Positions 1 through 14,816 of a DNA stretch of 64,000 nucleotides are shown here, piece by piece (the first letter of the stretch is position 1; the number at the start of each line of letters is the position of its first letter). The notes beneath the pieces are model-generated. The model saw nothing but the letters and a program-made list of their open reading frames with translations. It was not told the origin of the DNA and searched no databases. This stretch comes from a virus. Lineage: Duplodnaviria > Caudoviricetes. The translations under genes and the position numbers were made by a program. The stretch is from the IMG/VR virus record IMGVR_UViG_3300030330_006022, positions 50,351 through 114,350 of that record; one strand, 5' to 3'.

Positions 1-1
1 G

Positions 2-1051
2 CAAACCCAAGTCTTGTTACAACAAAAGCAATTGAGTCCTGATATAAGTTTGCAAATTACAATACCAAACGAATTTGAGAAAATAGCTCCAATCAACATA
101 GGCTATACAGCTGGTATAGAAACTAACAAGTGCTCCCCTCAATGGCTACCTAAGTGTAATGATATGGATAAAGTACTGGTTGTTTCAGAACACGCAAAAT
201 CCTCTATAGTGAATACAGTAGCAACAGCTACCAATAATAATACTGGAGAATCTTTTGATTATAAATGTGAAACTCCTGTAGAAGTTGTATGGGAAAATAC
301 AGTAAGATCAGAACCAGAAGAAATACCAGGCTTTGATCTAGAATTTGATAAAAACTTTTTAGTAGTTTCGCAACTTGGCCCTAGAAAGAATTTTGAAAAT
401 ACTGTATGTTGGTTTGTTGAAGAATTTATTGATCAAGAAGTTGGATTGGTTGTAAAGACTAATTTTAAAGGAAACTCAATTGGAGATTTTACACAAGTAG
501 AAAAACACCTTAAGTCTCTTCTTGGACGATATCAAAATCGTAAGTGTAAAGTTTATCTACTTCATGGGGATCTTAATCCTGGTCAAATGACCTCTTTGTA
601 TTCTAATTCTAAAATCACAGCTTTAGTAAATATTTCTCATGGCGAAGGTTTTGGCTTACCTATATATGAAGCAGCAAGAGAAAGTCTACCTATAATTACA
701 TGTGGCTGGTCTGGTCAACTAGATATCCTACATCATGGAGAGAAAGGGTATTTTAAATCTGTTGATTATACATTAAGACCAGTACAACAACAAGCAAGGT
801 GGAATGGTGTGATTGAAGAAGATGCTATGTGGGCTTTTGCCGATCAAGGATCTTACAAAATGGCACTAAGGTATGTAGCAAAAAATAAAAGTGAATTGAA
901 AGAACAATCAGCTAAATTAAAAGATTTAGTGTTGGAAAAATTTTCTGATGAAAAGTTGTTTGATTTATTCTGTAAATCAATAGTTGAAGAAGAAATGGAT
1001 ATTGACTCTTGGCTAGAAGAATTAGAATCAGGTATGGTAGAAAGTGAATAA
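2..1051 (+). CDS. Glycosyltransferase, GT4/GT-B fold (5' truncated by the window edge)
   Basis: RKN motif (GPRKNF) and the GT4 signature SHGEGFGLPIYEA; the frame is open back to position 2. Confidence 0.9.
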   Translation, partial: QTQVLLQQKQLSPDISLQITIPNEFEKIAPINIGYTAGIETNKCSPQWLPKCNDMDKVLVVSEHAKSSIVNTVATATNNNTGESFDYKCETPVEVVWENTVRSEPEEIPGFDLEFDKNFLVVSQLGPRKNFENTVCWFVEEFIDQEVGLVVKTNFKGNSIGDFTQVEKHLKSLLGRYQNRKCKVYLLHGDLNPGQMTSLYSNSKITALVNISHGEGFGLPIYEAARESLPIITCGWSGQLDILHHGEKGYFKSVDYTLRPVQQQARWNGVIEEDAMWAFADQGSYKMALRYVAKNKSELKEQSAKLKDLVLEKFSDEKLFDLFCKSIVEEEMDIDSWLEELESGMVESE

Positions 1052-1883
1052 AATATATTATTTTTCTGATTTGTTAGTAGAAGATCTGGTTGGCGGTGGT
1101 GAACTAAATGACTATGAACTTTGCAGTATGCTTTTAAAAAAAGGATACAAACTAACAAGATTAAGAACAAAAGAGATTAAACAAGAACACTTGGACAAAA
1201 AATATATTTACATTGTTTCTAATTTTGTAGGCTTAAGACCGGAGTACAAAGAATACTTAATTAAAAACTGTAAATATATAATTTATGAACACGATCACAA
1301 ATATCTTGCTTCAAGAAATCCAGCAATATATGAAAATTATCAAGCTCCAGAAAACAAAATAATCAACAAAAGTTTTTACGAAAACGCACAAATGGTTTTT
1401 TGTCAAAGTTCTTTTCATAAAAGCATAATCCAGAAAAATCTACAAATAGAAAATGTTTATAATGTATCTGGAAACTTATGGTCTATTGATAGTTTAGAAA
1501 CAATGAGACTTCTGAGTAAAAGGGACAAAAATGATTGTTTCTCTATTTTGAATTCTATGATAGAACATAAAAACACTAGAGAAGCTGCTTTTTATTGTGA
1601 TAAAAAAAACTTTAAATATACATTAATATCATCTAGAAATTATCAAGAGTTTCTTAATATGCTTTCTAGTAATAGTAAGTTTCTTTTTCTTCCTAAAACA
1701 CCTGAAACTTTATCTAGAGTTGTGGTTGAAGCAATGATGATGAATGTAAAAGTTGTTACAAATAAAAAAGTAGGCGCATCGTATGAGCCTTGGTTTAATA
1801 GAAAAGGAGAAGATTTGATAGACTTTATGTTAAACAAAAGAGAGCATATACTTAATAAAGTTTTAGAGGTGTTAGGTGAATAG
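1044..1883 (+). CDS. Glycosyltransferase-like protein (GT-B)
   Basis: N-terminal GGGELND and C-terminal PETLSRVVVEA (E-x7-E motif of GT4-like enzymes); overlaps both neighbours. Confidence 0.7.
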   Translation: MNKIYYFSDLLVEDLVGGGELNDYELCSMLLKKGYKLTRLRTKEIKQEHLDKKYIYIVSNFVGLRPEYKEYLIKNCKYIIYEHDHKYLASRNPAIYENYQAPENKIINKSFYENAQMVFCQSSFHKSIIQKNLQIENVYNVSGNLWSIDSLETMRLLSKRDKNDCFSILNSMIEHKNTREAAFYCDKKNFKYTLISSRNYQEFLNMLSSNSKFLFLPKTPETLSRVVVEAMMMNVKVVTNKKVGASYEPWFNRKGEDLIDFMLNKREHILNKVLEVLGE

Positions 1884-2622
1884 TCATTTTAAAATAATAG
1901 TTCCACTCTACAATGTTCAAGAGTGGATTAAGCTTTGTCTAAGATCTATTAAAGGTCAAACATATCGTAATTTTGAATGCATAATTATTGATGATATATC
2001 AACTGACAACAGTGTAGAAATAATAAAACAAGAGATTGGCAATGATGATAGATTTAAATTAATTGTAAATACAGAAAAAAAATATGCTTTAAAAAACATA
2101 CATGATGCGTTAATCGATTGTAACCCTAATGATGAAGATGTTATAGTAACAGTAGATGGAGATGATTGGCTAGCGAATAAAGATGTTTTAAAAACATTAA
2201 ATGAAGTGTATTCTTCTAATAATTGTTGGATGACTTATGGTAGCTATGCCGAATACCCTTCTAAAACAAGAGGTAAATTTGCTAAACAAATACCACAACA
2301 AGTCATAGATAAAAACTTATTTAGAAAACACGAATGGTGCTCTTCTCATTTAAGAACTTTTAAACACCACTTATGGAAATCTATTAACAAAGAGGATTTA
2401 ATAAATCCAGAAACAGGCAAGTTTATTAAAGCTGCATGGGACTTGGCTTTTATGTTTCCAATGTTGGAAATGTGTGGTAATAAATCTTTTTTCATCGATA
2501 AGGTACTGTACATTTATAATAGAGGCAATCCTCTAAACGAAGACAAAGTAAACCACAGCGTTCAATTAAACGAAGAAAGAATTGTCCGCAATAAAGAAGT
2601 ATATAATAGGATAGAGAATTGA
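1876..2622 (+). CDS. Glycosyltransferase family 2
   Basis: IIVPLYN, IIIDDISTD and VDGDDW (DxD) motifs. Confidence 0.92.
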   Translation: MNSHFKIIVPLYNVQEWIKLCLRSIKGQTYRNFECIIIDDISTDNSVEIIKQEIGNDDRFKLIVNTEKKYALKNIHDALIDCNPNDEDVIVTVDGDDWLANKDVLKTLNEVYSSNNCWMTYGSYAEYPSKTRGKFAKQIPQQVIDKNLFRKHEWCSSHLRTFKHHLWKSINKEDLINPETGKFIKAAWDLAFMFPMLEMCGNKSFFIDKVLYIYNRGNPLNEDKVNHSVQLNEERIVRNKEVYNRIEN

Positions 2623-3455
2623 AAAAAGTAAGTTTAAACATGATCAAAGGACCCTTTCAGCACGATATATGTTCTTCTGCTTTAAATACAAACAAGTATG
2701 TAGATTGGAAAAAGGATAATTCTGCTGATATATCTTGCCACATTGATTACGGATTGCTGGACAAGATAGATAGTACAAAAGAAAATTATGGTTGGGTATG
2801 TGAAAGCAGCGCCATAGTTCCATCTGTCATCAAAGAAGTTGTAAAAAACAAAGAGTCTTACAAAAAAAAATTTAAATACATTTTTACTTGTGATAGTAGA
2901 ATTGTAAACTTGGATAAAGATTTTTTTAAATTTACTATGCCATCAGCTTTGCCTTGGATACAAAATAAAAAGATATACAAAAAAACTAAATTAGTTTCTT
3001 TTATTGGTTCTAACAAAAAGATGTGTAAAGGCCACCTTTACAGACAAGAGATGATAGAAAAATACAAGGATAAAGTAGATCATTATGGTAGAGGTTTTAA
3101 AAACAAGGAGCTTCCATGGATGATAGAAAAAGAAAGTGGAAAAATATTAGGTCTAAAAGAATATATGTTTTCTTTTGCAATGGAAAACACAAACCATGAA
3201 TACGCATTTTGCGAAAAAACAACTGATTGTTTTGCCACTGGAACCATTCCAATATATTGGGGTGGAAAAGGAATTAAAGAATTTTTTGATCCTAAAGGCA
3301 TTATATTTATAGAGGATTTAAACTCTATAGATGAGTTAAATGAGGAATTATATAATTCAAAAATTGAATATATTGAGTCTAATTTTAAAAAACTAAACAG
3401 CCTATTAACATCAGAAGACTATTTTGTGAAAAACTACATAAGAGGTGAAGCTTGA
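2619..3455 (+). CDS. GT10 alpha-1,3-fucosyltransferase-like protein
   Basis: YMFSFAMEN...CEK..DCF..GTIPIYWG matches the GT10 motif. Confidence 0.85.
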   Translation: MKKVSLNMIKGPFQHDICSSALNTNKYVDWKKDNSADISCHIDYGLLDKIDSTKENYGWVCESSAIVPSVIKEVVKNKESYKKKFKYIFTCDSRIVNLDKDFFKFTMPSALPWIQNKKIYKKTKLVSFIGSNKKMCKGHLYRQEMIEKYKDKVDHYGRGFKNKELPWMIEKESGKILGLKEYMFSFAMENTNHEYAFCEKTTDCFATGTIPIYWGGKGIKEFFDPKGIIFIEDLNSIDELNEELYNSKIEYIESNFKKLNSLLTSEDYFVKNYIRGEA

Positions 3456-4318
3456 TAACTTGTAAATTTGCTGGTGGCTTGGGAAACAATTTGTTTCAGT
3501 TTGCTAATGTTTTTGCATTACATAGAAGACATAATGTTCCCTACTGTATTCAAAGAGATTTTCAAAGATTAACTTTTGATGGAAAGTTGTTAAAAGACGA
3601 ACTTAGATTTAAACAAGCTCATGTCTTGGAATTTCAAGAATTATTTGAAAATAAGCTTCCTTATATTGAAGAGTTAGCTGTGAACACTAAAAATATGAGC
3701 AACTATTATCATCATGATTTGGATGGAAGTAGTAATTTTTTGTTTTCGGAAGTTAAATTTAAAGATAATACAATGTATTATGGATACTATCAATCTGATA
3801 AATATTTTATGGATTCAAATTTGAAAGAAGAGCTGGTTGTCAATCGTGACATCACTGATATTATAAAGGATAGATACGCTGAACTTTTCAACAAACCAAC
3901 AATTTCATTACAATATAGACTTGGTGGAGATAGAAAGTTAAACAAGATTCAAAAGTTTCACAAAAACTTAAACCCAAGTTATTACACTAAAGCAGTTGAA
4001 GAAATATCAAGCATAACTGGTAAAAAAATTAGTGATTTCAATATTCTAGTTTTTTCTGATGATCTGGAACTAGCTAAAAAAGCTCTGTCATATACTACTT
4101 TAGATTGTGTTTATGTCGAAAACAAAAACAATATAGAAGATTTTATACACATGTCTATATGTGATCATAATATAATAGGAAACTCAACTTTTGCTTGGTG
4201 GGCTGCCTACATGAATAAAAACAGCGGATTAGTTATTGCTCCAAAAGATTTTTTTGGAAAAAATTATAGTAATTTTTTATTAGATGATTTCTATCCCACT
4301 GAATGGATAATTTTATAA
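3452..4318 (+). CDS. GT11 alpha-1,2-fucosyltransferase-like protein
   Basis: GGLGNNLFQ, GYYQS.KYF, VFSDD and IIGNSTFAWWAAY motifs; the usual HxRRGD motif reads QYRLGGD. Confidence 0.88.
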   Translation: MITCKFAGGLGNNLFQFANVFALHRRHNVPYCIQRDFQRLTFDGKLLKDELRFKQAHVLEFQELFENKLPYIEELAVNTKNMSNYYHHDLDGSSNFLFSEVKFKDNTMYYGYYQSDKYFMDSNLKEELVVNRDITDIIKDRYAELFNKPTISLQYRLGGDRKLNKIQKFHKNLNPSYYTKAVEEISSITGKKISDFNILVFSDDLELAKKALSYTTLDCVYVENKNNIEDFIHMSICDHNIIGNSTFAWWAAYMNKNSGLVIAPKDFFGKNYSNFLLDDFYPTEWIIL

Positions 4319-4328
4319 GGAGAAATAG

Positions 4329-5255
4329 TTGAAAATTATTGGATTAGGAAAATATGTACCAGAAAGAATCTTGCCAAATGAAGAAATACAGAAAACTGTC
4401 AATACAACTTCAGAGTGGATTAAAAGCAAGCTTGGTATAAGTGAGAGAAGGATTAGCAATAGCGATGAAAAAACTTCCGATCTTGCCTTTAAAGCTAGTT
4501 TAAAAGCTTTAAAATCTTGTAATAACTCTATTGATGATATTGATTTGATTATTGTTGCAACTTCAACACCAGATAGAAAAAGCCCATCAACTGCTTGTAT
4601 ATTACAAGAAAAATTTGATTGTAAAAATATACCGGCTTTTGATATAAATGCTGTTTGTTCGGGTTTTATATATGGACTTGATTTGTGTAATTCTTTATTA
4701 AACGAAAACAAATACAATAAAATTTTGCTAGTAGGAGCAGAACAGTACTCTACTATTACAAATTGGGAAAGCAGAGATTGTGTTTTCTTTGGAGATGGTG
4801 CTGGTGCTGTTGTGCTAGAAAAAGACGAAACCAGTTTTTTCAAATCAATTATAAAAGCTGATGGCAAAGGAAAAGAAAACTTTACAGTTCCTTCTGGAGA
4901 AAAGTATTTTAAAATGAACGGAAAAGAAGTGTTTAAGCATGCTACAAATGTTCTTCCAAGTTCTATAAAACAATTGCTACACGAGAACAATCTAAAATCA
5001 AGCGATATTGCCTTGTGTGTTCCTCACCAGCCTAGTATAAGGATTCTTGAATTAACAGCTAAAAAAATAGGCTTATCGTTTGATAAAATAGCAAGAACAA
5101 TGCATAAGTATGCTAATACTGCTGGTGCTTCTATTCCTGTTACTTTGTGTGATGCTTTTGAACAAGGAAGATTAAAGAAAGGTGATTTAATTTTATTTAC
5201 AGCCGTAGGTTCTGGATGGACTTGGGGTTCTGCAATTATAAGGTGGGCGATATGA
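4329..5255 (+). CDS. fabH: 3-oxoacyl-ACP synthase III (KAS III)
   Basis: Cys-His-Asn triad intact (DINAVCSGF, VPHQPS, YANTAGAS); FGDGAGA and MNGKEVFK; TTG start after AGGAG. Confidence 0.93.
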   Translation: MKIIGLGKYVPERILPNEEIQKTVNTTSEWIKSKLGISERRISNSDEKTSDLAFKASLKALKSCNNSIDDIDLIIVATSTPDRKSPSTACILQEKFDCKNIPAFDINAVCSGFIYGLDLCNSLLNENKYNKILLVGAEQYSTITNWESRDCVFFGDGAGAVVLEKDETSFFKSIIKADGKGKENFTVPSGEKYFKMNGKEVFKHATNVLPSSIKQLLHENNLKSSDIALCVPHQPSIRILELTAKKIGLSFDKIARTMHKYANTAGASIPVTLCDAFEQGRLKKGDLILFTAVGSGWTWGSAIIRWAI

Positions 5256-5902
5256 AAAAAATGTTAATTATTGGTGGATCTGGTGGTATTGGAAAAGAAA
5301 TGACAAAACTGTTTTCAGATAAATATGAAGTTTTATCATGTAGTTCTAAAACTTTTGATATAACTAACTTGCCCTTTCTAGATAGGTTTTTTAGTCTTAA
5401 TACATATGATATTATTCTAAATGCTTCTGGTTACAATTATGATTCTTTTGTTCATAAATATAGTATAAAAAATATACATGAGGTTGACAAAATGATTGAT
5501 ATCAATGTAAAAGGTAATTTAAACCTACTTTCAGCTTGCCTCCCTGGTATGAGAAAACAAGGAAATGGTAGAATAATATTTTTATCTTCTGTTTTGTCAA
5601 CGATGCCTGTAGCAGGAACATCAGTATATTCCGCATCCAAAGCTTTTATAGATAATTTAGTCAAAACTGTAACTTTAGAAAACTTATCTAAAGGCATAAC
5701 TTGTAATTCTATACAATTAGGATATTTTGATGCTGGAATGGCACATAGAATTCCTGAAAAAATTATCAATAATATAGTAGATGGTATTCCATTAAAAAGA
5801 TTGGGAAAAATGGAAGAACTTTACAACACAATAGAGTATCTTATAAACACAGAGTATGTTTCTGGTACTTCAATAAAAATAAATGGAGGCATTGATTTAT
5901 GA
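5252..5902 (+). CDS. Short-chain dehydrogenase/reductase, FabG/PhaB-like ketoacyl reductase
   Basis: GGSGGIG, Ser in LSSV, YSASK and C-terminal VSGTSIKINGG; ATG at 5252 overlaps the fabH stop (ATGA). Confidence 0.85.
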   Translation: MKKMLIIGGSGGIGKEMTKLFSDKYEVLSCSSKTFDITNLPFLDRFFSLNTYDIILNASGYNYDSFVHKYSIKNIHEVDKMIDINVKGNLNLLSACLPGMRKQGNGRIIFLSSVLSTMPVAGTSVYSASKAFIDNLVKTVTLENLSKGITCNSIQLGYFDAGMAHRIPEKIINNIVDGIPLKRLGKMEELYNTIEYLINTEYVSGTSIKINGGIDL

Positions 5903-6420
5903 AACATGGAATAGACTTTTATATAAATGATGATGTTGTAATCAAAAGAAATGAAACAGCAATATTTGGCAACCATGTTGCCATCGACAAAGGCTTTTAC
6001 TGTACTACTCAAATAAATGTAGGTGATTATGTTCACATTTCTCCTTACTGTACTGTAATAGGTGGAAAAGATGGCATGTTTATAATGGAAGACTTCACAG
6101 GTCTTTCAGCTGGATGTAGAGTAGTTTGTTGTGGAGATGATTACATCTCAGGACACTTGATGAACCCAACTGTGCCAATAAAATATAGAAAAGTAAAAAA
6201 TGATAAAGTTGTTTTAAAAAGATTCAGTTGTTTAGGGACAAATTGTGTTGTATTACCAGGTGTGGTAATTGCAGAAGGTTCAGTTATAGGAGCTAATTCT
6301 TTGGTAAATAAATCAACAGAACCTTGGACTGTTTATGTTGGTAGTCCGGCAAAACCAATAAAAAAAAGATCTAAAGAGTTATCTTATAAATTTGCTAAGG
6401 AGCTTGGGTATGAATTATAA
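5899..6420 (+). CDS. Left-handed beta-helix sugar N-acyltransferase (AntD/VioB-like)
   Basis: Hexapeptide repeats; VGDYVHISPY, DDY...LMNPTVP and VYVGSPAKPIKKR resemble AntD as I recall it. Confidence 0.8.
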   Translation: MKHGIDFYINDDVVIKRNETAIFGNHVAIDKGFYCTTQINVGDYVHISPYCTVIGGKDGMFIMEDFTGLSAGCRVVCCGDDYISGHLMNPTVPIKYRKVKNDKVVLKRFSCLGTNCVVLPGVVIAEGSVIGANSLVNKSTEPWTVYVGSPAKPIKKRSKELSYKFAKELGYEL

Positions 6421-7309
6421 CGCAAAAGATGATTATGTTAATAAAGACTCTATGTCTATGCCATGGGTTGAATCACCTTTTTTTGAATCTATTTTACAAA
6501 ACTTAGATGTATCTGAAGAATTAAAAAGTATGGCTAGAAAATACAACAAAGACGGTTATGTGATTTTAGATTTAAACTTAGATGATGACATAATATTTAA
6601 AATCAATGAAGATGTAAAACAAATCATAAAATCTAAAAATTTTGTGGGACAAGAGAAATATGAATATACAGATCACAGAAGGCTTTTCCAAGCTTGGAAA
6701 AAAAGTAAAAATGTAAGAAGTTTAACAAAAAACGAGAAGATACTAAGTGCCTTAAGATTTCTTTATAATAGAGAACCTTTTGCTTTTTCAACAATTAATT
6801 TTACTAATCCAACTTCACAACCTCTACACAGCGATACGATACATTTCAACTCCTATCCAAAAGGATGGATGGTTGGTGTTTGGGTTGCTTTTGAAGACTG
6901 TGACGTGTCAAATGGAGCTTTGAGAGTTGTTAAAGGTAGTCATAAATGGAAAGAGTACGATTATAACTGTATAAATATAATCCACCCAGATAACAGAGAT
7001 GATGGAGAAAAAAAATCATACAGAGATTATGATCAATTTGTCAGAAGATTAGTTGTGTCAAAGAACGCAAAAGAAGATTCTGTTGTAATGAAAAAAGGAC
7101 AAGCAATTATTTGGTCTGCTAATTTACTTCATGGCGGTACACCAGTTGAAAATGATAAGGTTACAAGAAGATCCCAAGCCATTCATTACTTTTTTCATGG
7201 ATGTAAAAAATATTACACACCAATGTTTTCAGAACCAATGTTAGGCAAGTACGCTGAAAAATGGTGTAATGAGAAAGAAAATGTATTCACATATAAGGAG
7301 AAAAAATAA
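6410..7309 (+). CDS. Phytanoyl-CoA dioxygenase (PhyH) family Fe(II)/2-oxoglutarate dioxygenase
   Basis: QPLHSD (HxD), GVWVAFED, NGAL..VKGSHKW, LLHGG and TRRS; ATG at 6410 follows AGGAG. Confidence 0.88.
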   Translation: MNYNAKDDYVNKDSMSMPWVESPFFESILQNLDVSEELKSMARKYNKDGYVILDLNLDDDIIFKINEDVKQIIKSKNFVGQEKYEYTDHRRLFQAWKKSKNVRSLTKNEKILSALRFLYNREPFAFSTINFTNPTSQPLHSDTIHFNSYPKGWMVGVWVAFEDCDVSNGALRVVKGSHKWKEYDYNCINIIHPDNRDDGEKKSYRDYDQFVRRLVVSKNAKEDSVVMKKGQAIIWSANLLHGGTPVENDKVTRRSQAIHYFFHGCKKYYTPMFSEPMLGKYAEKWCNEKENVFTYKEKK

Positions 7310-7905
7310 TGTCTTTTCAAGTAATTGCTGATTTTGAGAAAGAAATAGCTAATTTCTTCGGAGCTCCATATGCAGTAGCAGTGGATTGCTGCACACACGG
7401 AATTGAGCTTTGCTTAAGAATGAAGCAAGTTAAAAAAATAAAAGTCCCAAAGAGAACTTACTTATCTGTTCCAATGTTAGCTAACAAACTTAATATTGAT
7501 CTGGAGTGGACCAATCAGGTGTGGCAAGATTATTATCATCTAACTGATGACATAATTGATGCTGCTGTTTTATGGAGAAAGAACAGTTATATTGCTGGTA
7601 CATATATGAGTGTGAGTTTCCAATTTAGAAAACACTTAAGTCTTGGTAGAGGTGGTATAATATTGTTTGATAAAGAAGAAGATTTCGACACATTGAAAAG
7701 AATGTCTTATGATGGAAGACACCCAGACCAACGATGGCACTTGCAGAATATAAAAACTATGGGATATCATTACTACATGACTCCTGAAACAGCTGAACTT
7801 GGTTTACAAAAGCTTCCTGAAGCAATTGAAAGAAAACCAAAACAATGGGTTTATACAGATTGGCCCGATCTAACTACAATGGATTTTTTTAAGGAGAACA
7901 AATGA
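7309..7905 (+). CDS. Short DegT/DnrJ/EryC1/StrS PLP-dependent aminotransferase-like protein
   Basis: FEKEIANFFGAPYAVAVDCCTHG, IIDAA and SFQFRKHLSLGRGG (PLP Lys); only 198 aa. Confidence 0.8.
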   Translation: MSFQVIADFEKEIANFFGAPYAVAVDCCTHGIELCLRMKQVKKIKVPKRTYLSVPMLANKLNIDLEWTNQVWQDYYHLTDDIIDAAVLWRKNSYIAGTYMSVSFQFRKHLSLGRGGIILFDKEEDFDTLKRMSYDGRHPDQRWHLQNIKTMGYHYYMTPETAELGLQKLPEAIERKPKQWVYTDWPDLTTMDFFKENK

Positions 7906-8819
7906 AAATATTATTATTAGGATCAACCGGTTTTATTGGTAGTAACCTAAAAACAAGACTAGAAAAAGAAGGACACACGATTTTTACTGCTGAAAGATCT
8001 AGTGGAGTAGATATAAGAAGATACAACGATATTCGCTTCACTATAAAATACACCAAACCAGATGTCATTTACAATTTAGCTTCTCACGGTGGCAGTGTGC
8101 ACTATGTAAGAAATAACTCAGCTGATGTTTTTCAAGACAATGTTTTAATGGCAATTAATTTATACAAAGCCATTTCAGAAGTTAACAAAGATATAAAGGT
8201 TATACAGCCTTTCTCTAACTGTTCTTATCCTGGAAAAAGTGATGTCCAATATGAAGAAGAGTGGTTGGATGGCGATGTACATCCATCAGTATTTTCTTTT
8301 GGTAATTCTAAAAGAACAATTTTTTATTTATCAAAATGTTACAAACAGCAATACGGAATAAGATCAGTAAACATATTGTTTCCTAATACTTATGGCCCTG
8401 GTGACTCTTTAGATCCAAACCACACACATGCTTTAAACGGCATGATCATAAGGATGCTAGAGGCTCAAAAAAAAGGTGACGAAGAATTTGTAGTCTGGGG
8501 GACTGGTTCTCCTATTAGAGAGTGGGCTTATATTGATGATTTTATAGAGGTACTAGTTAGGTGCTTAGAGATCGAAGGTCAAGAGTATCCTGTAAACATG
8601 GGCCAAGAAAAAGGATATTCTATTGCTGAATCTGCTGGTTTGATTAAAAGAGCCTGCAAGTTTAAAGGAAAGATAACTTTCGACACAAAATATAGAGATG
8701 GAGACCCAGTTAAAATAGTAAGTGGAGAAAAGTTCAAACAATTATTTAAAGACTTTGAGTTCTTTGATCACTATCAAGGAATAAAAAATACAGTAAAATA
8801 CTATAAGGAGAAAAAATGA
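7902..8819 (+). CDS. GDP-L-fucose synthase (Fcl/WcaG)-like epimerase/reductase
   Basis: GSTGFIG, SNCSYP, PNTYGPGD, H in NHTHAL and VWGTGSPIREW; YxxxK reads FGNSK. Confidence 0.8.
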   Translation: MKILLLGSTGFIGSNLKTRLEKEGHTIFTAERSSGVDIRRYNDIRFTIKYTKPDVIYNLASHGGSVHYVRNNSADVFQDNVLMAINLYKAISEVNKDIKVIQPFSNCSYPGKSDVQYEEEWLDGDVHPSVFSFGNSKRTIFYLSKCYKQQYGIRSVNILFPNTYGPGDSLDPNHTHALNGMIIRMLEAQKKGDEEFVVWGTGSPIREWAYIDDFIEVLVRCLEIEGQEYPVNMGQEKGYSIAESAGLIKRACKFKGKITFDTKYRDGDPVKIVSGEKFKQLFKDFEFFDHYQGIKNTVKYYKEKK

Positions 8820-9754
8820 AAAAAATATTGATCACAGGCGGAGCTGGTTATGTTGGTACTACATTAATACCACTTCTACTTGGAAAAGGATATGAAGTTA
8901 CTGTCATAGATAGCTTGATATTCAATAATGGTGACAGACTAATACCCTTTATGTCAAATGAAAATTTTAGTTTTGTAAAAGGAGATGTTAGAGACTTAAA
9001 ATTATTAAGTGGGCTAGTAGGTGGTAAAGATGTAGTAATACATTTGGCTGCGTATGTTGGCTTTCCTTTGTGCAGACTAAAAGGAGAAAAAGAATCATAT
9101 GATGTGAACACAAAAGCAACTGAAGATTTGGTTAATATGTTAGAAGAAAACCAGTATCTACTTTTTGGCTCAACAGGTTCAAACTATGGTGAAGTTGTAG
9201 GTTTGTGTACTGAGGAAACACCACTAAACCCTCTATCAATTTATGGTAAAACTAAAACTGATGCTGAAAGAATTGTAATGACGCGTAAAAATTCAACAGC
9301 TTTTCGTTTTGCCACAGCTTTTGGAATTTCACCTAGAATGAGACTAGACCTTTTAGTAAATGATTTGACCTATAAAGCAATGACGGAAGGATATGCTGTT
9401 ATTTATGAATCTCATTTTTTGAGAACATTTATCCACGTTAGAGATTTGGCAAGATCTTTTCTTTTTGCAATCGAAAACCAAGAAAAAATGATTTCTAATG
9501 TTTATAATGTTGGTTCTAATAAGATGAATCATACAAAAAGGGAAGTCTGCGAAAAGATAAATGAGCAAGTGCCAAATGCTTTTTTCCATCATGCTTCAAT
9601 CAAAGAAGACCCAGATAAAAGAAATTATAAAGTATCTTATGATAAAATAAACTCTCTAGGATTTGAAGTTGAGGTAGACTTAGAAACAGGTATTAAGGAA
9701 ATTAAAGATTGTGTCATATTATTAGAAAACTCTCTGAGGTATAGAAATGTCTAA
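8816..9754 (+). CDS. NAD-dependent NDP-sugar epimerase/dehydratase
   Basis: ITGGAGYVG, HLAA, YGKTK, RFATAFGISPRMRLDL. Confidence 0.9.
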   Translation: MKKILITGGAGYVGTTLIPLLLGKGYEVTVIDSLIFNNGDRLIPFMSNENFSFVKGDVRDLKLLSGLVGGKDVVIHLAAYVGFPLCRLKGEKESYDVNTKATEDLVNMLEENQYLLFGSTGSNYGEVVGLCTEETPLNPLSIYGKTKTDAERIVMTRKNSTAFRFATAFGISPRMRLDLLVNDLTYKAMTEGYAVIYESHFLRTFIHVRDLARSFLFAIENQEKMISNVYNVGSNKMNHTKREVCEKINEQVPNAFFHHASIKEDPDKRNYKVSYDKINSLGFEVEVDLETGIKEIKDCVILLENSLRYRNV

Positions 9755-10049
9755 AGATATAACATTTGAAGAATACTACGAGCACTACTTGACATTACAC
9801 CAAAACAAATGGTGTAGAAGACTTCATGTTTTAGGACAGATAATGACTATTGCTTTTGTTGTTATTTGTATTAAATATAGTTTGTGGTTATTGTTGCTAG
9901 CAACACCGTTTGTAGTTTATCCTTTTGCTTGGACTGGTCATTACATCTTTGAAAAAAATGAACCTGCTGCGTTTAAAAACCCTTTGTGGGCTAAAGCTTG
10001 TGATTGGGTTATGCTAAAGGATATAATAATAGGTAAAATACCGTTTTAA
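9747..10049 (+). CDS. DUF962/Mpo1-like small membrane protein
   Basis: YL..H.....RRLH..G, a hydrophobic hairpin and FAWTGHYIFEKNEPAAF. Confidence 0.85.
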   Translation: MSKDITFEEYYEHYLTLHQNKWCRRLHVLGQIMTIAFVVICIKYSLWLLLLATPFVVYPFAWTGHYIFEKNEPAAFKNPLWAKACDWVMLKDIIIGKIPF

Positions 10050-10059
10050 GGAGAAAAAA

Positions 10060-10911
10060 ATGAAAAAAGTATTAGTAACAGGTGGTTGTGGATTTGTAGG
10101 AAGTAATTTGGTAGATATACTGATTAATAGCGGTAATCATGTTACTGTTATCGATGACCTGTCTTTTGGTAAAAAAGAATATTGTAATATAAAAGCAAAA
10201 TATATATTTGATGATTTTAAAAAGGTGTTAAATAATCACGAAGAAAAATATGATGTAATATATCATTTAGCAGCTGAGGCTAGAATACAACCATCTTTTA
10301 AAAATCCTCTGTATACTTGTGAAAACAATTCTTATGGAACTGCAATAGTTTGTGAATATGCAAGAAAAAACAATTCCATGATTGTGTATGCTGGTTCTAG
10401 TTCATTTTATGGTGGTGTGTATTTAAATCCATATGCATTCGCAAAATGGCAAGGTGAAGAAGTCATACAAATGTATACTAAAGTATATAATGTGAAAAGC
10501 GGAATAGCCAGGTTCTTTAATGTTTATGGGCCTAGAAACCCTTTGATAGGTCAATACACACCCGTGGTAGCTATTTTTGAACAGCAAATGCTAGACTTTA
10601 AACCACTAACAATTGTTGGAGACGGAGAGCAAAGAAGAGACTTTACTCACGTATATGATATATGTCAAGGGTTAATTGACATTTCTTTGGAAGATAGACA
10701 AGGAGAGGTATACAACCTAGGAACAGGTAAAAACTTTTCCATAAATGAGTTAGCTGACTTATTTGGTGGAGAGAAAAAGTACTTACCTGCTAGACCTGGA
10801 GAAGTTAGAGTAACACTTGCTGACACATCTAAAATAAATAAAGCAACTGGCTGGAAAGCCAAATACGATTTAGAAAAATACATAAAGGAGTTTAAAAATG
10901 AAATTATCTGA
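10060..10911 (+). CDS. NAD-dependent NDP-sugar 4-epimerase (GalE-like)
   Basis: VTGGCGFVGS, HLAA, YAFAK, RFFNVYGP, GDGEQRRDFTHV. Confidence 0.9.
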   Translation: MKKVLVTGGCGFVGSNLVDILINSGNHVTVIDDLSFGKKEYCNIKAKYIFDDFKKVLNNHEEKYDVIYHLAAEARIQPSFKNPLYTCENNSYGTAIVCEYARKNNSMIVYAGSSSFYGGVYLNPYAFAKWQGEEVIQMYTKVYNVKSGIARFFNVYGPRNPLIGQYTPVVAIFEQQMLDFKPLTIVGDGEQRRDFTHVYDICQGLIDISLEDRQGEVYNLGTGKNFSINELADLFGGEKKYLPARPGEVRVTLADTSKINKATGWKAKYDLEKYIKEFKNEII

Positions 10912-11083
10912 TCAAGCACTTGGAGCTATTATGATGGCTCTTCAAAAGTCTCTACTAGAGCAATCTGATATCACACCCGTCTTAAAAGGTATGGAGTTTG
11001 ATATAATGGACAACGGAGAGCTTCTTGTTAAGAATCCTCCTGTTGTCAAAACAAATGTAAACGTTGGCGTTAAAGATGCCTAG
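10898..11083 (+). CDS. Hypothetical protein (61 aa)
   Basis: AAGGAG RBS; overlaps both neighbours. Confidence 0.65.
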   Translation: MKLSDQALGAIMMALQKSLLEQSDITPVLKGMEFDIMDNGELLVKNPPVVKTNVNVGVKDA

Positions 11084-11324
11084 ATACGTCTACAGATGTT
11101 CTAAATGCGAAGGAGAGTTTCAAGTTCGTCATGGAATGAGTGAAACTCAGGAACATTGTGAATTGTGTGAGGCTACAGGAACTCTTCAACGCATCCCTCA
11201 ACTAACTTCCATTTCTAAACCTCCGTCGGAAGAGGGAAAGAGAGTTAAAGAAGCTATTGAGGATAATAAGAAAATATTTAAAGAACTATATAACGAAGCG
11301 AGGACACAAACATATGACGATTGA
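11076..11324 (+). CDS. FmdB-family zinc-ribbon protein
   Basis: MPRYVYRCSKCEGEF...CELC pattern; ATG at 11076. Confidence 0.8.
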   Translation: MPRYVYRCSKCEGEFQVRHGMSETQEHCELCEATGTLQRIPQLTSISKPPSEEGKRVKEAIEDNKKIFKELYNEARTQTYDD

Positions 11325-11739
11325 TGCTGCTCTTACAATTGTGCTTTTAGGGAGCCTAGGATGTAATTTATTGGCCGCTGTTTACATTAGAGACATACTA
11401 GGTAGGCTTGGCTGGTTAACGCAAAATTTGGCTAATTTAACGGAATTAATAAGAGGTTTTCAAAACCACATTAGAGGTGTCCATGAGCTTGAGAAGTTTT
11501 ATGGAGACAAAGATTTAAAATTACTTGTTCAACATACAAGTGATTTGATAGAGGTCATGGATGATTATTTAGAGGTTGGATTGGATTCTGAATTAATCGA
11601 GGAAGAACTAACCGAGGACAACACAAATGACACAACGAAAAAGAAAACCGAGAACAAAAAGGATGTATTTTACTCAGATACACGAGGACGCGATTCTGAA
11701 GTATTGCGATCCGGCTACGACTTATCTGGAAAAGTGTGA
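11314..11739 (+). CDS. Hypothetical membrane-anchored protein
   Basis: GAGGA RBS before ATG 11314; N-terminal hydrophobic helix followed by a helical/acidic region. Confidence 0.6.
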   Translation: MTIDAALTIVLLGSLGCNLLAAVYIRDILGRLGWLTQNLANLTELIRGFQNHIRGVHELEKFYGDKDLKLLVQHTSDLIEVMDDYLEVGLDSELIEEELTEDNTNDTTKKKTENKKDVFYSDTRGRDSEVLRSGYDLSGKV

Positions 11740-12328
11740 ACTATATGAAAATTTAATACAACCTGCTTTTTCTGAAATGGTTGATAAAATAGTATTCACT
11801 TATAGGTTTACCACTTTACCTAATATAGAAGATCTTAGAGAGGACTGCAAAGTTTGGCTCACCACTATATTAGCTAAATATGACCCCAATCGTGGATCAA
11901 AAGCATTTTCATACTTTTCAGTAATAACAAAAAATTGGTTTATTCACCAAGTAAAGAAAAACTCTAAAAGAGCAAAAAGAGAAGTTGATTTTGAATCAGC
12001 GGATGCTGAGTTAGAAAAAGCAAAACTAACAACTAGAAACCTATATGTAGAACAACAAATAGAAAAAGAGTTCTGGGAACACTTGTGGGCTGAAATAAAC
12101 AGCTGGGAAGTATCTATTATGAATGAAAATGAAAAGAAAGTATACAATGCTGTTAAAATTCTTTTAAACTCAAAAGAAGAAATAGATATTTTTAATAAAA
12201 AAGCAATATATTTTTATCTCAGGGAAATAACAGATTTAAACACAAAGCAAATTGTTTCTCAACTAAACAAGATGAGAAAAAAATACAAAACTTTCAAGTA
12301 CAAATGGGATAATCACAAATTTGAGTGA
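11627..12328 (+). CDS. Phage late-transcription sigma factor (T4 gp55-like)
   Basis: MYFT...AI..Y, EDL..DC and KYDP.RGSKAFSYFSVITKNWF (region-2-like AF.YF motif); lies just upstream of the structural module. Confidence 0.65.
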   Translation: MTQRKRKPRTKRMYFTQIHEDAILKYCDPATTYLEKCELYENLIQPAFSEMVDKIVFTYRFTTLPNIEDLREDCKVWLTTILAKYDPNRGSKAFSYFSVITKNWFIHQVKKNSKRAKREVDFESADAELEKAKLTTRNLYVEQQIEKEFWEHLWAEINSWEVSIMNENEKKVYNAVKILLNSKEEIDIFNKKAIYFYLREITDLNTKQIVSQLNKMRKKYKTFKYKWDNHKFE

Positions 12329-12342
12329 TAACTAATTATTAT

Positions 12343-12630
12343 ATGTCAAAAAAATTAGATGAAATTATACAAAAAACACTCGCCAACATTGAAGAAGACC
12401 GATTAGTTACTCGAGATCTACTTGAAGATGCTATGGAATATCTTGCAAAAGATGAACATCGTCATAGAGAAATTGGTCTCACTCTAGCTAAGTATGTTGA
12501 AACTTTACAGCGTTCAAACGAACAAATGGTAAAGGTCGCTTCGCTTATTCAAAAAGAAGAAAAGAAAGAAGACGGAATCTCCAAAGAAGAAATGGATAAC
12601 ATATTTTCTGCAATTGCGGAGGAAGAATAA
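12343..12630 (+). CDS. Hypothetical helical protein
   Basis: ATG at 12343 (the track starts at GTG 12325); TAATG coupling to the next gene. Confidence 0.7.
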   Translation: MSKKLDEIIQKTLANIEEDRLVTRDLLEDAMEYLAKDEHRHREIGLTLAKYVETLQRSNEQMVKVASLIQKEEKKEDGISKEEMDNIFSAIAEEE

Positions 12631-13799
12631 TGTCTGGTTGTGGAAATGATAAGAAAAAATCTTTCTTAAGCAAACCTACTGCTAGAGTTAGGAATAGAAG
12701 AGCTGAGATTGAAAGAGCACAAAGAGAAGCAGCAGGCACATTAACAGGTAAAACTATCTTTAGAGCTAGAGTTGTTGCCCTCCCAGCTCAAGAAACTGCC
12801 GGTATAAAAATGGCAGATGGAGTAGCATTAGAAGGTTTCTCTGATTCTTTGTTTCAACTAAAAGAAGGTAGTTTTACCATGGTAAATTATGTTAGAGTTT
12901 TTGGCTTAGATGGGTCTTTACCAGACCCGGCAGAACCAGGTATTACAACTGATTCAGCAGTAATCGCCATGGCAATGCACGGACCAGCATATGCACCAGA
13001 ATATATGAATTTAAAGTGTGGAGATATCATAGCAGTACAATTTGAAGAGGCTCCTGCAACACAATTATCCAACCAAATACCAAAAGTGATAAGCAAGTTT
13101 GAGAGCGATGAAGCATACGCCGACAGAGTCAGAGCTAATTTAGGAGCTAGTACTAGTGTTTTCTTAGGACTAGATAGTTCTTCTTTTCTTGGAGGCAACA
13201 ACAACCCATCAGGCTTTGACAATATAATATTCGAACTAGAGTCTAAGATTCCAATCGCTACAGGTATAAAAAAATCACCAAATATACCAGGTTTAACTCA
13301 GATAGTTGAAAATGAATACAAAATATGGGTGGGTAAAAAAGAAACCAACCAAGATGTTTATCAAACTTTGAAAAAATATTGGGACAATATACAATATGCA
13401 GGCTGGACACCCTCAGGTGACCCATGGTCAGCAGCTTTTATTTCTTGGATTTTAAAAGACCATGGATTCCCAAAAGCTTCTGCTCATCGAATATACTCAA
13501 ATTCTGCTTTACAAAACAGAATAGCTTCAAAAAAAGGTTGGCAACTTTTTTCTCTTTTACGAGAAACTCCAAAAGTTTCTGTTGGGGATGTTATGGTTAA
13601 GCCTCGTTATCCACAACCTCCTAACTATAAAGCAACACACGGCGATGCAGTCTATAAAATATCTAATAATATCGCCTACTTAACAGGTGGTAATGTTGGC
13701 GACACAATGGTAATAAATGTTGCTGTTAAACTAAATCCTGATGGTACTGTAAAAAATCGGCAAAAGTACGTCGCAATTTTAAAAAAAATAGAGGATTAA
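12630..13799 (+). CDS. gp5-like baseplate hub protein with a C-terminal DUF2272/CHAP-like cell-wall hydrolase domain
   Basis: N-terminal OB-like strands (FRARVV, LKCGDIIAVQFE); C-terminal PWSAAFISW, VGDV, THGDAV, GGNVGD. Confidence 0.65.
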   Translation: MSGCGNDKKKSFLSKPTARVRNRRAEIERAQREAAGTLTGKTIFRARVVALPAQETAGIKMADGVALEGFSDSLFQLKEGSFTMVNYVRVFGLDGSLPDPAEPGITTDSAVIAMAMHGPAYAPEYMNLKCGDIIAVQFEEAPATQLSNQIPKVISKFESDEAYADRVRANLGASTSVFLGLDSSSFLGGNNNPSGFDNIIFELESKIPIATGIKKSPNIPGLTQIVENEYKIWVGKKETNQDVYQTLKKYWDNIQYAGWTPSGDPWSAAFISWILKDHGFPKASAHRIYSNSALQNRIASKKGWQLFSLLRETPKVSVGDVMVKPRYPQPPNYKATHGDAVYKISNNIAYLTGGNVGDTMVINVAVKLNPDGTVKNRQKYVAILKKIED

Positions 13800-13802
13800 C
13801 AA

Positions 13803-14816
13803 ATGTCAATTTTTAGAAACAAAACACCAGAATTTTTAAAAGATGAAGTTTTAAATGGTATTAAGAGACCTGGTTTGCTACACACCAGATACTTTGAACC
13901 AATGCCAACATATGAAAAAGCTGAAGCCGAATTTATACTTCCTGATGCCTTATTCACAGATGGAGAAAATGATGGTGGTGATCAAAAATTAAATTGTGGC
14001 ATAGTTTTTGGTAGAGATAGAGACTCGCATCTAATGTCGGGTTATGGTAAAATTGGAGGAACACCATGTGCTGCTATCGACATAGTAGCCGGTAGGATGT
14101 CTTCTGCTAACACCAAGAAGGGCTTGTTTGGTAAAAAATTTGAACCTGTTGAAAGGGATACGCTAGTAGGAAGAAACTTTTTCTCTGATGCTTCTAGAAT
14201 ATATATAAGTCAAAAATGTGATATAGACCACTACTTTGGTTTACCCGATGGTAATTTTGGTAGACCAAAAGGAGAAGCTGGGATAGGCGTAAAATCAGAC
14301 CATGTTAGAATAATAGGTAGAGATTCGATTAAACTATTTGCAGGTTCTGCTAGAGCCGATAATCTAGGTATTCAAGGAGAACTTAATTCAAATGGTGATC
14401 AACTAATGAAATCAAAAATAGAATTTATAACTGACTTAGATGCAAAAACACAACCACTTGTCTTAGGGTCTAATCTAGTTGAATTTTTAGATGAAGTATT
14501 AGATAAGATATCTGATTTGCAGCAAGCTTTCTTTTTGACAAATGTAAATATTATAAAATTAGAAGCTGCATTGGCAAGTCATTTTCACATTGGTGGTGGT
14601 TTAGGTTATGTAACTGTAGGACCAGATCCTATACTTGCTTCAGTGTGTTTAAATGATATAAAAACAAACGTGCAGAAGATAACTGACAATGTTTCAAATG
14701 TTTTAAACTTTGAAGTTATGAGAGTAAACTATTTAGGATTGCCAAACTCAAACAACCCAGATCATAGAATAAAGACTGCAAAAAGTATTTTAAGCAGTAA
14801 CGTATACACAACATAG
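13803..14816 (+). CDS. Baseplate central spike protein (gp5 C-terminal/gpV-like)
   Basis: Beta-repeat region (SDASRIYIS, GIGVKSDHVRIIGRDSIKL), PLVLG..L and an HxH tip motif (SHFH); position between hub and wedge genes. Confidence 0.55.
   Translation: MSIFRNKTPEFLKDEVLNGIKRPGLLHTRYFEPMPTYEKAEAEFILPDALFTDGENDGGDQKLNCGIVFGRDRDSHLMSGYGKIGGTPCAAIDIVAGRMSSANTKKGLFGKKFEPVERDTLVGRNFFSDASRIYISQKCDIDHYFGLPDGNFGRPKGEAGIGVKSDHVRIIGRDSIKLFAGSARADNLGIQGELNSNGDQLMKSKIEFITDLDAKTQPLVLGSNLVEFLDEVLDKISDLQQAFFLTNVNIIKLEAALASHFHIGGGLGYVTVGPDPILASVCLNDIKTNVQKITDNVSNVLNFEVMRVNYLGLPNSNNPDHRIKTAKSILSSNVYTT

Follow-up and report, generated by a model that had tools for sequence, protein, structure and literature searches.

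A phage operon encoding FabH, a ketoreductase, an AntD-type acyltransferase, a PhyH dioxygenase and a short DegT-like enzyme: a probable route to an N-(hydroxyacyl) amino sugar

The window analysed here is a stretch of 64,000 nucleotides (positions 50,351 to 114,350) that makes up the last 64 kb of the 114,350-bp IMG/VR viral record IMGVR_UViG_3300030330_006022, whose completeness CheckV puts at 63%. The source is an uncultured marine phage; the window has a G+C content of ~30-38% and contains T4-type baseplate and primase genes. Within its glycan gene cluster lies a run of five genes encoding FabH, a short-chain dehydrogenase/reductase (SDR), an LbH acyltransferase, a PhyH dioxygenase and a short DegT-like pyridoxal phosphate (PLP) enzyme. 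Judged from their sequences and those of their relatives, the five genes together probably make a nucleotide-activated N-(hydroxyacyl) 4-amino-4,6-dideoxyhexose. They are arranged as follows:

4329-5255, plus strand: FabH (KAS III); NF006829, 360 bits, and TIGR00747, 335 bits
5252-5902, plus strand: SDR ketoreductase; Pfam adh_short, 101 bits; listed open reading frame from 5216
5899-6420, plus strand: AntD-type LbH N-acyltransferase; phmmer against AntD (3vbi-3vbp), E 7e-29
6410-7309, plus strand: PhyH dioxygenase; PF05721, 83.5 bits; open reading frame from TTG 6392
7309-7905, plus strand: short DegT-like PLP enzyme, 198 aa; PF01041, 55.9 bits

Likely starts are ATG 5252 for the SDR gene, where start and FabH stop overlap in the sequence ATGA, and ATG 6410 for the PhyH gene, preceded by AAGGAG. 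All junctions of the five genes combine a Shine-Dalgarno-like sequence inside the upstream gene (AAGGAG-like or GGAGG-like) with an overlap of start and stop, and on this evidence the five genes read as one operon within the phage glycan cluster. An earlier, sequence-only reading of this DNA had described five coupled genes between glycosyltransferases and epimerases; all five are present there, on the plus strand and at the positions given. This coupling, like the gene identities and catalytic residues, is read from the sequences themselves, and the recurrent linkage of the genes from comparison with relatives.

FabH scores above the curated cut-offs of both models (249 bits for NF006829 and 292 bits for TIGR00747). 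Its top PDB matches are all FabH proteins aligned end to end (2ebd, 265 bits), and the triad Cys110/His233/Asn263 is invariant in all 129 aligned sequences. In the tree of these 129 sequences, the window protein falls in a marked clade of 46 rows from viruses and metagenomes; module neighbours are present in 35 of them. The closest relatives of the protein are 64-81% identical to it. The clade carries a signature at the position of E. coli FabH Phe87, the residue closing the primer pocket: all 46 viral-clade rows have Ser there (Ser85 in the window protein). Of the 71 other FabHs, most of them from cellular polysaccharide clusters, 58 have Ala, and six of the nine housekeeping-type paralogs have Phe. 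In a quick free tree search the housekeeping paralogs came out, with weak support, next to the viral clade as its sister group. However, separating the housekeeping and distant paralogs from every glycan-cluster FabH gives a tree that improves on that free tree by 70 log-likelihood units (approximately unbiased, AU, test; p-AU 0.89), so the quick search had missed a better tree. The nearest cellular FabHs, at 43-51% identity (Bacteroidota, Cloacimonadota, Acidobacteriota and others), are each followed by an SDR gene and often lie beside LbH, DegT or sugar-transferase genes. Further FabH paralogs in these genomes are 38-44% identical, and one of them adjoins acpP. The window gene has no context of the type II fatty-acid synthesis (FAS-II) kind, being located inside a glycan operon, away from fabD, fabG, acpP and plsX. 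By sequence, then, the window FabH is not a housekeeping FabH. The sequence-only reading had held that this fabH is no fatty-acid auxiliary gene, and the view is supported: the tree and the AU test set the clade apart from the housekeeping paralogs, and the window protein does not group with FAS-II enzymes.

Several observations on FabH extend beyond the window. Many bacteria (Bacteroidota, Cloacimonadota, Fermentibacteria, Acidobacteriota) carry a second FabH followed by an SDR in polysaccharide clusters (loci L183-L262; for example L186:7977-9639 in Olleya, and L190:6259-9648). These second FabHs usually have Ala at the Phe87 position and no adjacent acyl carrier protein (ACP) gene. They appear to form a broad class of KAS III enzymes devoted to glycan tailoring, of which we know of no study. 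The sole "cellular" row in the viral FabH clade comes from a 15.6-kb contig of a Rhodobacteraceae metagenome-assembled genome (MAG; L241), which carries AntD-like, FabH, SDR and short DegT genes and probably belongs to a phage, having been binned with a bacterial MAG. A 141-kb contig labelled as a giant-virus MAG (L089, IMGVR GVMAG-S-ERX555964-61) encodes a FabH of this clade together with PhyH, an SDR and an LbH acyltransferase; the module may extend beyond tailed phages, or this contig may be misassigned.

The three genes that follow fabH encode the SDR, the acyltransferase and PhyH. The SDR is a classical member of its family, with GGSGGIG, NASG, Ser and YSASK motifs; its best-scoring families are FabG, PhaB and acetoacetyl-CoA reductase (116-120 bits), its top PDB matches are FabG and acetoacetyl-CoA reductase, and its predicted role is reduction of a 3-oxoacyl to a 3-hydroxyacyl group. 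The acyltransferase has a single strong relative among solved structures, AntD, to which it aligns over residues 21-161 with 104 bits and ~37% identity over 141 residues; the next-best solved match has an E value of 1.4e-9. Two motifs that the sequence-only reading had named for AntD (HI..Y...GG and DD....LM.PT.P..Y..V) prove to be real, as both appear in the phmmer alignment to 3vbi, where HIspYctviGG pairs with HIaaYtalyGG and DDyisghLMnPTvPikYrkV with DDfsgnaLMgPTiPnqYknV. The residue mutated in 3vbk and 3vbm corresponds to a Ser in the phage protein; of the entries in this series, 3vbn is named as AntD (PMC6031040). The same reading had proposed a comparison with both AntD and VioB. Against the E value of 7e-29 for AntD, the NeuD/PglB/VioB-type model matches only the C-terminal 50 residues of the phage protein, with 48 bits versus a cut-off of 161. 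PhyH scores well above the gathering threshold of PF05721 (22 bits) and has SyrB2 and human PhyH as its best PDB matches. Its translation contains LHSDT and LLHGG motifs and the HxD...H iron triad in the form HSD...H, which marks it as of the hydroxylase type and not a halogenase. In most related loci that carry it, PhyH adjoins an AntD-like gene, and it is predicted to hydroxylate the acyl group.

A tree of 70 AntD-like proteins of known gene context separates those with neighbours for acyl supply or tailoring from a group without them. On one side, which includes the window protein, 24 of 29 rows have FabH, ligase, SDR or PhyH neighbours (21 linked to FabH, two to a ligase and one to SDR plus PhyH), and on the other side 0 of 41 rows have any acyl-supply or tailoring neighbour; since related sequences share labels, this association does not represent independent events.

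The fifth protein is unusual in its size. DegT-family proteins generally have ~360-390 aa, whereas the window protein, at 198 aa, lacks the C-terminal domain and ~50 internal family residues, and matches only profile positions ~25-95 and 163-236. Its PF01041 score nevertheless exceeds the gathering threshold of 19.8 bits, and the PLP residues D84 and K108 are invariant in 36 short-DegT members, as are S103 and F104. An AlphaFold (AF2) model reaches a pLDDT of 94.7 and a pTM of 0.91, and the top eight Foldseek matches to it are all GDP-perosamine synthases. The best of these is Per of Caulobacter crescentus (3bn1, 3dr4, 3dr7; E 3e-11, TM 0.72 query-normalised), with which the short DegT shares the catalytic Lys and Asp; in contrast to the ~365-370 residues and two domains of Per, it has a shortened large domain and no C-terminal domain, and the identity is 17-19%. 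Predicted as a homodimer with PLP, the protein scores 0.91 versus 0.00 for the best of three controls, with at least 97% of contacts agreeing between runs and a partner pLDDT of 93. Of proteins solved as pairs, 20 of 30 reached this mark, as did 1 of 23 solved as single chains, and the pass of the short DegT may reflect its likeness to DegT dimers that have already been solved.

Short DegTs form a large family. At E <= 1e-30 it comprises 324 representative clusters (50% identity), nearly all of ~200-220 aa, and it occurs in at least 588 IMG/VR viral contigs; over 105 loci the median length is 199 aa and the range 192-217, except for a few longer calls of up to 861. Natural fusions join short DegTs to GNAT acetyltransferases, in both orders, and to a GT1-FkbM methyltransferase protein (P0180, P0184, P0128). 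Taken together, sequence and model suggest that the short DegT is probably an enzyme, and the predicted activity is that of a GDP-4-keto-6-deoxymannose 4-aminotransferase resembling perosamine synthase. This brings to light a large viral family of half-size DegT enzymes of which no member has been characterised; if active, they would define a minimal sugar-aminotransferase architecture. In one protein of the family, an HNH/AP2 endonuclease is fused at the N-terminus.

The genes of the module recur together outside the window. A scan of viral contigs with the single FabH protein gave no matches, but one seeded with an alignment of the closest FabHs recovered 33 viral and 80 metagenome loci, with flanks of up to 8 kb on each side. 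Among these 113 FabH-clade loci, some of them on related contigs, 76 have an SDR neighbour, 68 an AntD-like gene, 48 PhyH and 43 a short DegT. On many contigs from viruses and metagenomes, genes for an SDR, an AntD-like protein, PhyH and a short DegT lie next to a FabH relative of 40-56% identity, and at least four gene orders occur (FabH-SDR-AntD-PhyH-DegT; DegT-AntD-FabH; AntD-PhyH-FabH-SDR; SDR-FabH-AntD-PhyH). The linkage thus survives rearrangement, which argues for a shared pathway. A scan seeded with the short DegT gives the complementary view: among the best 80 viral loci from the at least 588 contigs, Gmd is present in 66, an AntD-like gene in 32, PhyH in nine and FabH in eight, and all eight FabH loci also have an AntD-like gene. 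These counts suggest a hierarchy in which Gmd and the short DegT form the core, the AntD-like acyltransferase is a frequent addition, and FabH, SDR and PhyH are a further layer found only alongside the acyltransferase. The idea that FabH is unique to this phage had been entertained after a scan seeded with AntD, in which 0 of 69 loci had FabH; it was abandoned when the FabH- and DegT-seeded scans showed this to be a sampling effect of exact peptide patterns.

Close relatives of the window differ mainly in this layer. In L066, the flanking genes are close to those of the window (short DegT 88%, Fcl-like 86%, epimerase 82% and Mpo1-like 74% identical), whereas the cassette between them consists of an AntD-like gene (53%), a 97-aa carrier protein with a DSLD motif, an SDR, an AMP-ligase and PhyH, with no FabH. 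At L066:8521-10857, and also in L004, the slot of FabH thus holds a phosphopantetheine-type carrier that escapes detection by Pfam, together with an SDR and a 451-aa AMP-binding ligase. The TARA scaffold L177 has flanks at 75-85% identity, and its SDR, FabH and AntD-like genes are only 44-49% identical and stand in another order. Locus L103 carries the window's own cassette at 83-95%, and L003 has an SDR-AntD-PhyH arrangement with Gmd and two full-length DegT genes but no short DegT. Alternative acyl-activating machinery in the same slot beside the same acyltransferase is what would be expected if that machinery feeds the acyltransferase. Variation of the acyl cassette between phages whose flanks are 75-88% identical is reminiscent of how O-antigens diversify, and suggests that selection acts on a surface glycan made by the phages.

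The pathway that we infer from these data, including its substrates, chain length and order of steps, would start from a supplied 4-keto-6-deoxy sugar nucleotide, most likely GDP-4-keto-6-deoxymannose formed by a Gmd that is encoded by the host or in the missing 37% of the genome. A homodimer of the short DegT would aminate C4 to give a GDP-perosamine-type sugar. In parallel, FabH would condense a short acyl-CoA primer with a malonyl thioester, and the SDR would reduce the resulting 3-oxoacyl thioester to a 3-hydroxyacyl thioester, in the simplest case 3-hydroxybutyryl. The AntD-type enzyme would transfer this acyl group to the 4-amino group of the sugar, PhyH would add an extra hydroxyl to the acyl chain before or after transfer, and the neighbouring glycosyltransferases would place the sugar in a glycan that probably also contains fucose. 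The sequence-only reading had suggested that FabH and the ketoreductase supply the acyl group for an AntD-like transfer to a DegT-made amino sugar, and this proposal gains support from the AntD match, the linkage, the FabH tree, the clade of AntD-like proteins and the swap for a ligase in L066.

The acyl carrier may be CoA or host ACP. The donor of AntD is a CoA thioester, and an all-CoA route (acetyl-CoA and malonyl-CoA to acetoacetyl-CoA and then 3-hydroxybutyryl-CoA) is an attractive possibility; host ACP is also a possible carrier. That the window has no ACP gene, as the sequence-only reading had noted, is confirmed on a wider scale: no PF00550 (PP-binding) match occurs in the full 114,350-bp record, nor in four other viral records bearing the module, two of which are complete, and the window's record also contains no relative of a divergent phage carrier protein. 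Cellular glycan-cluster FabHs likewise have no adjacent ACP gene. The Arg that docks ACP (R249 in E. coli) is kept in the window protein as Arg238 and in 9 of 9 housekeeping-type paralogs, versus 11 of the 46 clade members. One idea was that clade FabHs without a phage SDR keep this Arg so that host FabG can act on an ACP-bound intermediate; it was rejected, as most of them have Asn instead.

Several points weigh against the pathway as drawn. Some related loci have FabH but no SDR, and the ACP-docking Arg, present in so few of the clade members, does not track the presence of the SDR; the acyl carrier and the reduction step are accordingly tentative. The SDR itself falls below every FabG/PhaB cut-off (116-120 versus 269-302 bits). 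With Ser in place of Phe87 the primer pocket may be larger, and the acyl chain may then be other than C4. Related contigs enter the linkage counts, and the loci do not represent independent events. Finally, the 114-kb record contains no 4,6-dehydratase (Gmd), nucleotidyltransferase or ACP gene, so that the sugar nucleotide is deduced from relatives only and the precursor would have to be supplied by the host or by genes in the portion of the phage genome that was not sampled. The two SDRs downstream of the short DegT were considered as 4,6-dehydratases and rejected, since both lack the Asp/Glu acid/base pair after the catalytic Ser/Thr.

The same logic could operate on a dTDP-linked, gluco-configured sugar of the viosamine/anthrose type, as in Bacillus AntD and the Pseudomonas syringae island described below. 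AntD, the closest solved relative of the acyltransferase, uses dTDP-4-amino-4,6-dideoxyglucose as acceptor, and Gmd is missing from the window's record as well as from the clusters of the window, L066 and L177. Yet in 70 of 109 related loci Gmd immediately adjoins the short DegT; in 4 of 5 loci examined it lies directly downstream and scores 380-393 bits on TIGR01472. Together with the Foldseek result, in which the eight best matches are GDP-perosamine synthases, this points to a GDP-linked sugar. Fcl, GT10 and GT11 enzymes depend on GDP-4-keto-6-deoxymannose or GDP-fucose, and the cluster encodes members of all three GDP-sugar-using families; conversely, the record has no RmlA-type nucleotidyltransferase, and the acid/base pair missing from the downstream SDRs is that of RmlB-type enzymes. 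A dTDP-sugar is therefore unlikely, and the sugar is more likely of the GDP-perosamine type, judging from gene context and model. In this respect the sequence-only reading, which had favoured an anthrose/viosamine-like sugar, needs to be revised.

Other explanations would detach part of the module from the sugar. That FabH and the SDR are a fatty-acid auxiliary pair boosting initiation by host FAS-II, and sit in a glycan cluster by chance, would fit a FabH that passes its subfamily cut-offs and keeps both triad and ACP-docking Arg, with host ACP serving where no dedicated one is encoded. It is nonetheless very improbable, because the pair overlaps translationally with the acyltransferase operon, FabHs of this clade keep AntD-like, PhyH and short-DegT genes as neighbours even where loci are rearranged, they stand apart from the housekeeping paralogs and carry Ser instead of Phe at position 87, a close relative has a ligase and a carrier protein in the same place, and no other fatty-acid synthesis genes are seen in the annotated part of the window (1-14816). 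The genes might also serve separate products, the AntD-like enzyme merely N-acetylating the amino sugar while FabH, SDR and PhyH serve some other purpose by producing a hydroxy acid, either free or bound to a carrier. Many loci do have an AntD-like gene, a short DegT and Gmd with no acyl-supply gene, which shows that the acyltransferase can work alone, and the SDR is absent from some FabH loci. But AntD-like proteins beside acyl-supply genes form a clade of their own (24 of 29 versus 0 of 41), every FabH locus in the DegT-seeded sample has an AntD-like gene (eight of eight), PhyH mostly adjoins an AntD-like gene and AntD itself uses a beta-hydroxyacyl-CoA; this explanation is improbable. Distinctly improbable, too, is a 198-aa DegT-like protein that is no aminotransferase but a ColD-like dehydratase, a regulatory remnant or a scaffold. 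The loss of the whole C-terminal domain and ~50 internal residues, in a family with no characterised member, would suit such a role, whereas the Schiff-base Lys and the PLP-binding Asp are invariant (ColD has His at the Lys position), the family numbers 324 clusters with a confident fold and natural N-acetyltransferase fusions, and L003, which lacks the short DegT, has full-length DegT genes instead.

The known system closest to the module is the viosamine island of P. syringae pv. tabaci, of which the phage module is a variant. That island comprises vioA, vioS (KAS III), vioR (a reductase), acp, vioB, vioM and vioT, and places D-Qui4N(3-hydroxy-1-oxobutyl)2Me on flagellin; a vioR mutant loses the modified sugar, and all seven open reading frames have homologues in the glycosylation island of P. 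aeruginosa PAK (PMC3927599). Both systems cluster a KAS III enzyme, a reductase, an acyltransferase and a DegT-type aminotransferase with glycosyltransferases. The module differs in being phage-borne, in having no ACP gene, in the added PhyH and in the 198-aa DegT; its acyltransferase is of the AntD type and not of the NeuD/PglB/VioB type, its sugar route is probably based on GDP-mannose instead of dTDP-glucose, and the window has no methyltransferase gene, although relatives have FkbM genes.

A second comparison is with the anthrose pathway of Bacillus cereus/anthracis, in which AntD N-acylates a 4-amino-4,6-dideoxy sugar nucleotide with a beta-hydroxyacyl-CoA, its donor being 3-hydroxy-3-methylbutyryl-CoA; Kubiak and Holden reportedly identified its acceptor in 2012 as dTDP-4-amino-4,6-dideoxyglucose. 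The acyl donor of Bacillus anthrose comes from the enoyl-CoA hydratase AntA. The phage acyltransferase lacks ~32 N-terminal AntD residues, its acyl donor would come from FabH plus SDR and not from AntA (no enoyl-CoA hydratase domain is present in the phage cluster), and its acceptor is probably a GDP-sugar and not a dTDP-sugar. In Vibrio cholerae O1, rfbK-O encode a carrier protein, a ligase, dehydrogenases and an acyltransferase that put a hydroxy-acid on perosamine. By this description the Vibrio genes resemble the ligase-type cassette of L066, and the window has FabH in place of ligase and carrier.

Among GenBank phages, no credible FabH was found. The FabH matches in GenBank entries labelled as phage are mostly short Listeria, Staphylococcus, Enterococcus and faecal fragments, together with records from Helicobacter and Acinetobacter; host DNA is their most likely origin, and none is module-like. 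AntD-like genes occur there only in unannotated megaphage assemblies, and short DegTs only in megaphage assemblies, in Synechococcus phage S-SCSM2R (annotated as AHBA synthase) and in Flavobacterium "immuto" phages. A paper on a cyanomyovirus classes such a short-DegT gene under antibiotic synthesis (PMC12801897). The rarity in phages that the sequence-only reading had claimed thus holds for cultured GenBank phages, from which the module is absent, but not for uncultured aquatic phages, in which it recurs.

What is new here lies above all in three things: a FabH clade that is specific to phages and marked by Ser, an acyl cassette that can be swapped, and a large family of minimal DegTs. A phage FabH can be read as a glycan-tailoring enzyme instead of a lipid auxiliary gene, a point that annotation pipelines would otherwise get wrong, and the module offers a testable role for phage PhyH dioxygenases. 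A bolder version is possible but doubtful: aquatic phages might possess a self-contained, ACP-independent route, in which a KAS III enzyme with a Ser pocket acts on CoA thioesters, a half-size aminotransferase provides GDP-perosamine and PhyH yields a dihydroxyacyl-perosamine displayed on the virion or the infected cell, with the acyl cassette (FabH, ligase plus carrier, SDR only, or none) swapped between close relatives as a diversifying surface determinant. If true, this would give a first concrete role to the abundant and unexplained PhyH genes of marine phages.

The operon is part of a single co-oriented glycan cluster spanning 14-10911, in the order GT1, unknown protein, GT2, GT10, GT11, FabH, SDR, LbH acyltransferase, PhyH, short DegT, Fcl-like, SDR epimerase, DUF962/Mpo1-like and SDR epimerase. 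Its two flanks are:

14-4318, plus strand: upstream context with GT1, an unknown 279-aa protein, GT2, GT10 and GT11 (Pfam)
7902-10911, plus strand: downstream context with the Fcl-like gene, two SDR epimerase/reductase genes and a 100-aa DUF962/Mpo1-like protein (Pfam, NCBIfam, sequences)

The upstream glycosyltransferases are likely glycan assembly enzymes. GT10 and GT11 are alpha-1,3 and alpha-1,2 fucosyltransferase families and recur in many related loci; the Fcl-like gene (7902-8819) is divergent, with 159 bits versus a cut-off of 500. The combination of GT10/GT11 (2619-4318) and the Fcl-like gene suggests a fucosylated or 6-deoxyhexose-rich glycan. The DUF962/Mpo1-like protein (9747-10049) matches the full Pfam profile with 105 bits and is 74-75% identical in L066 and L177, where its gene always comes after those for the Fcl-like protein and the epimerase. 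Just 4 of the 80 DegT-seeded loci have it, and it is thus lineage-specific and no regular partner of PhyH. Directly downstream of the glycan cluster, three giant open reading frames (2909, 3965 and 2547 aa) lie at 14825-46816 around a gp6-like baseplate wedge gene.

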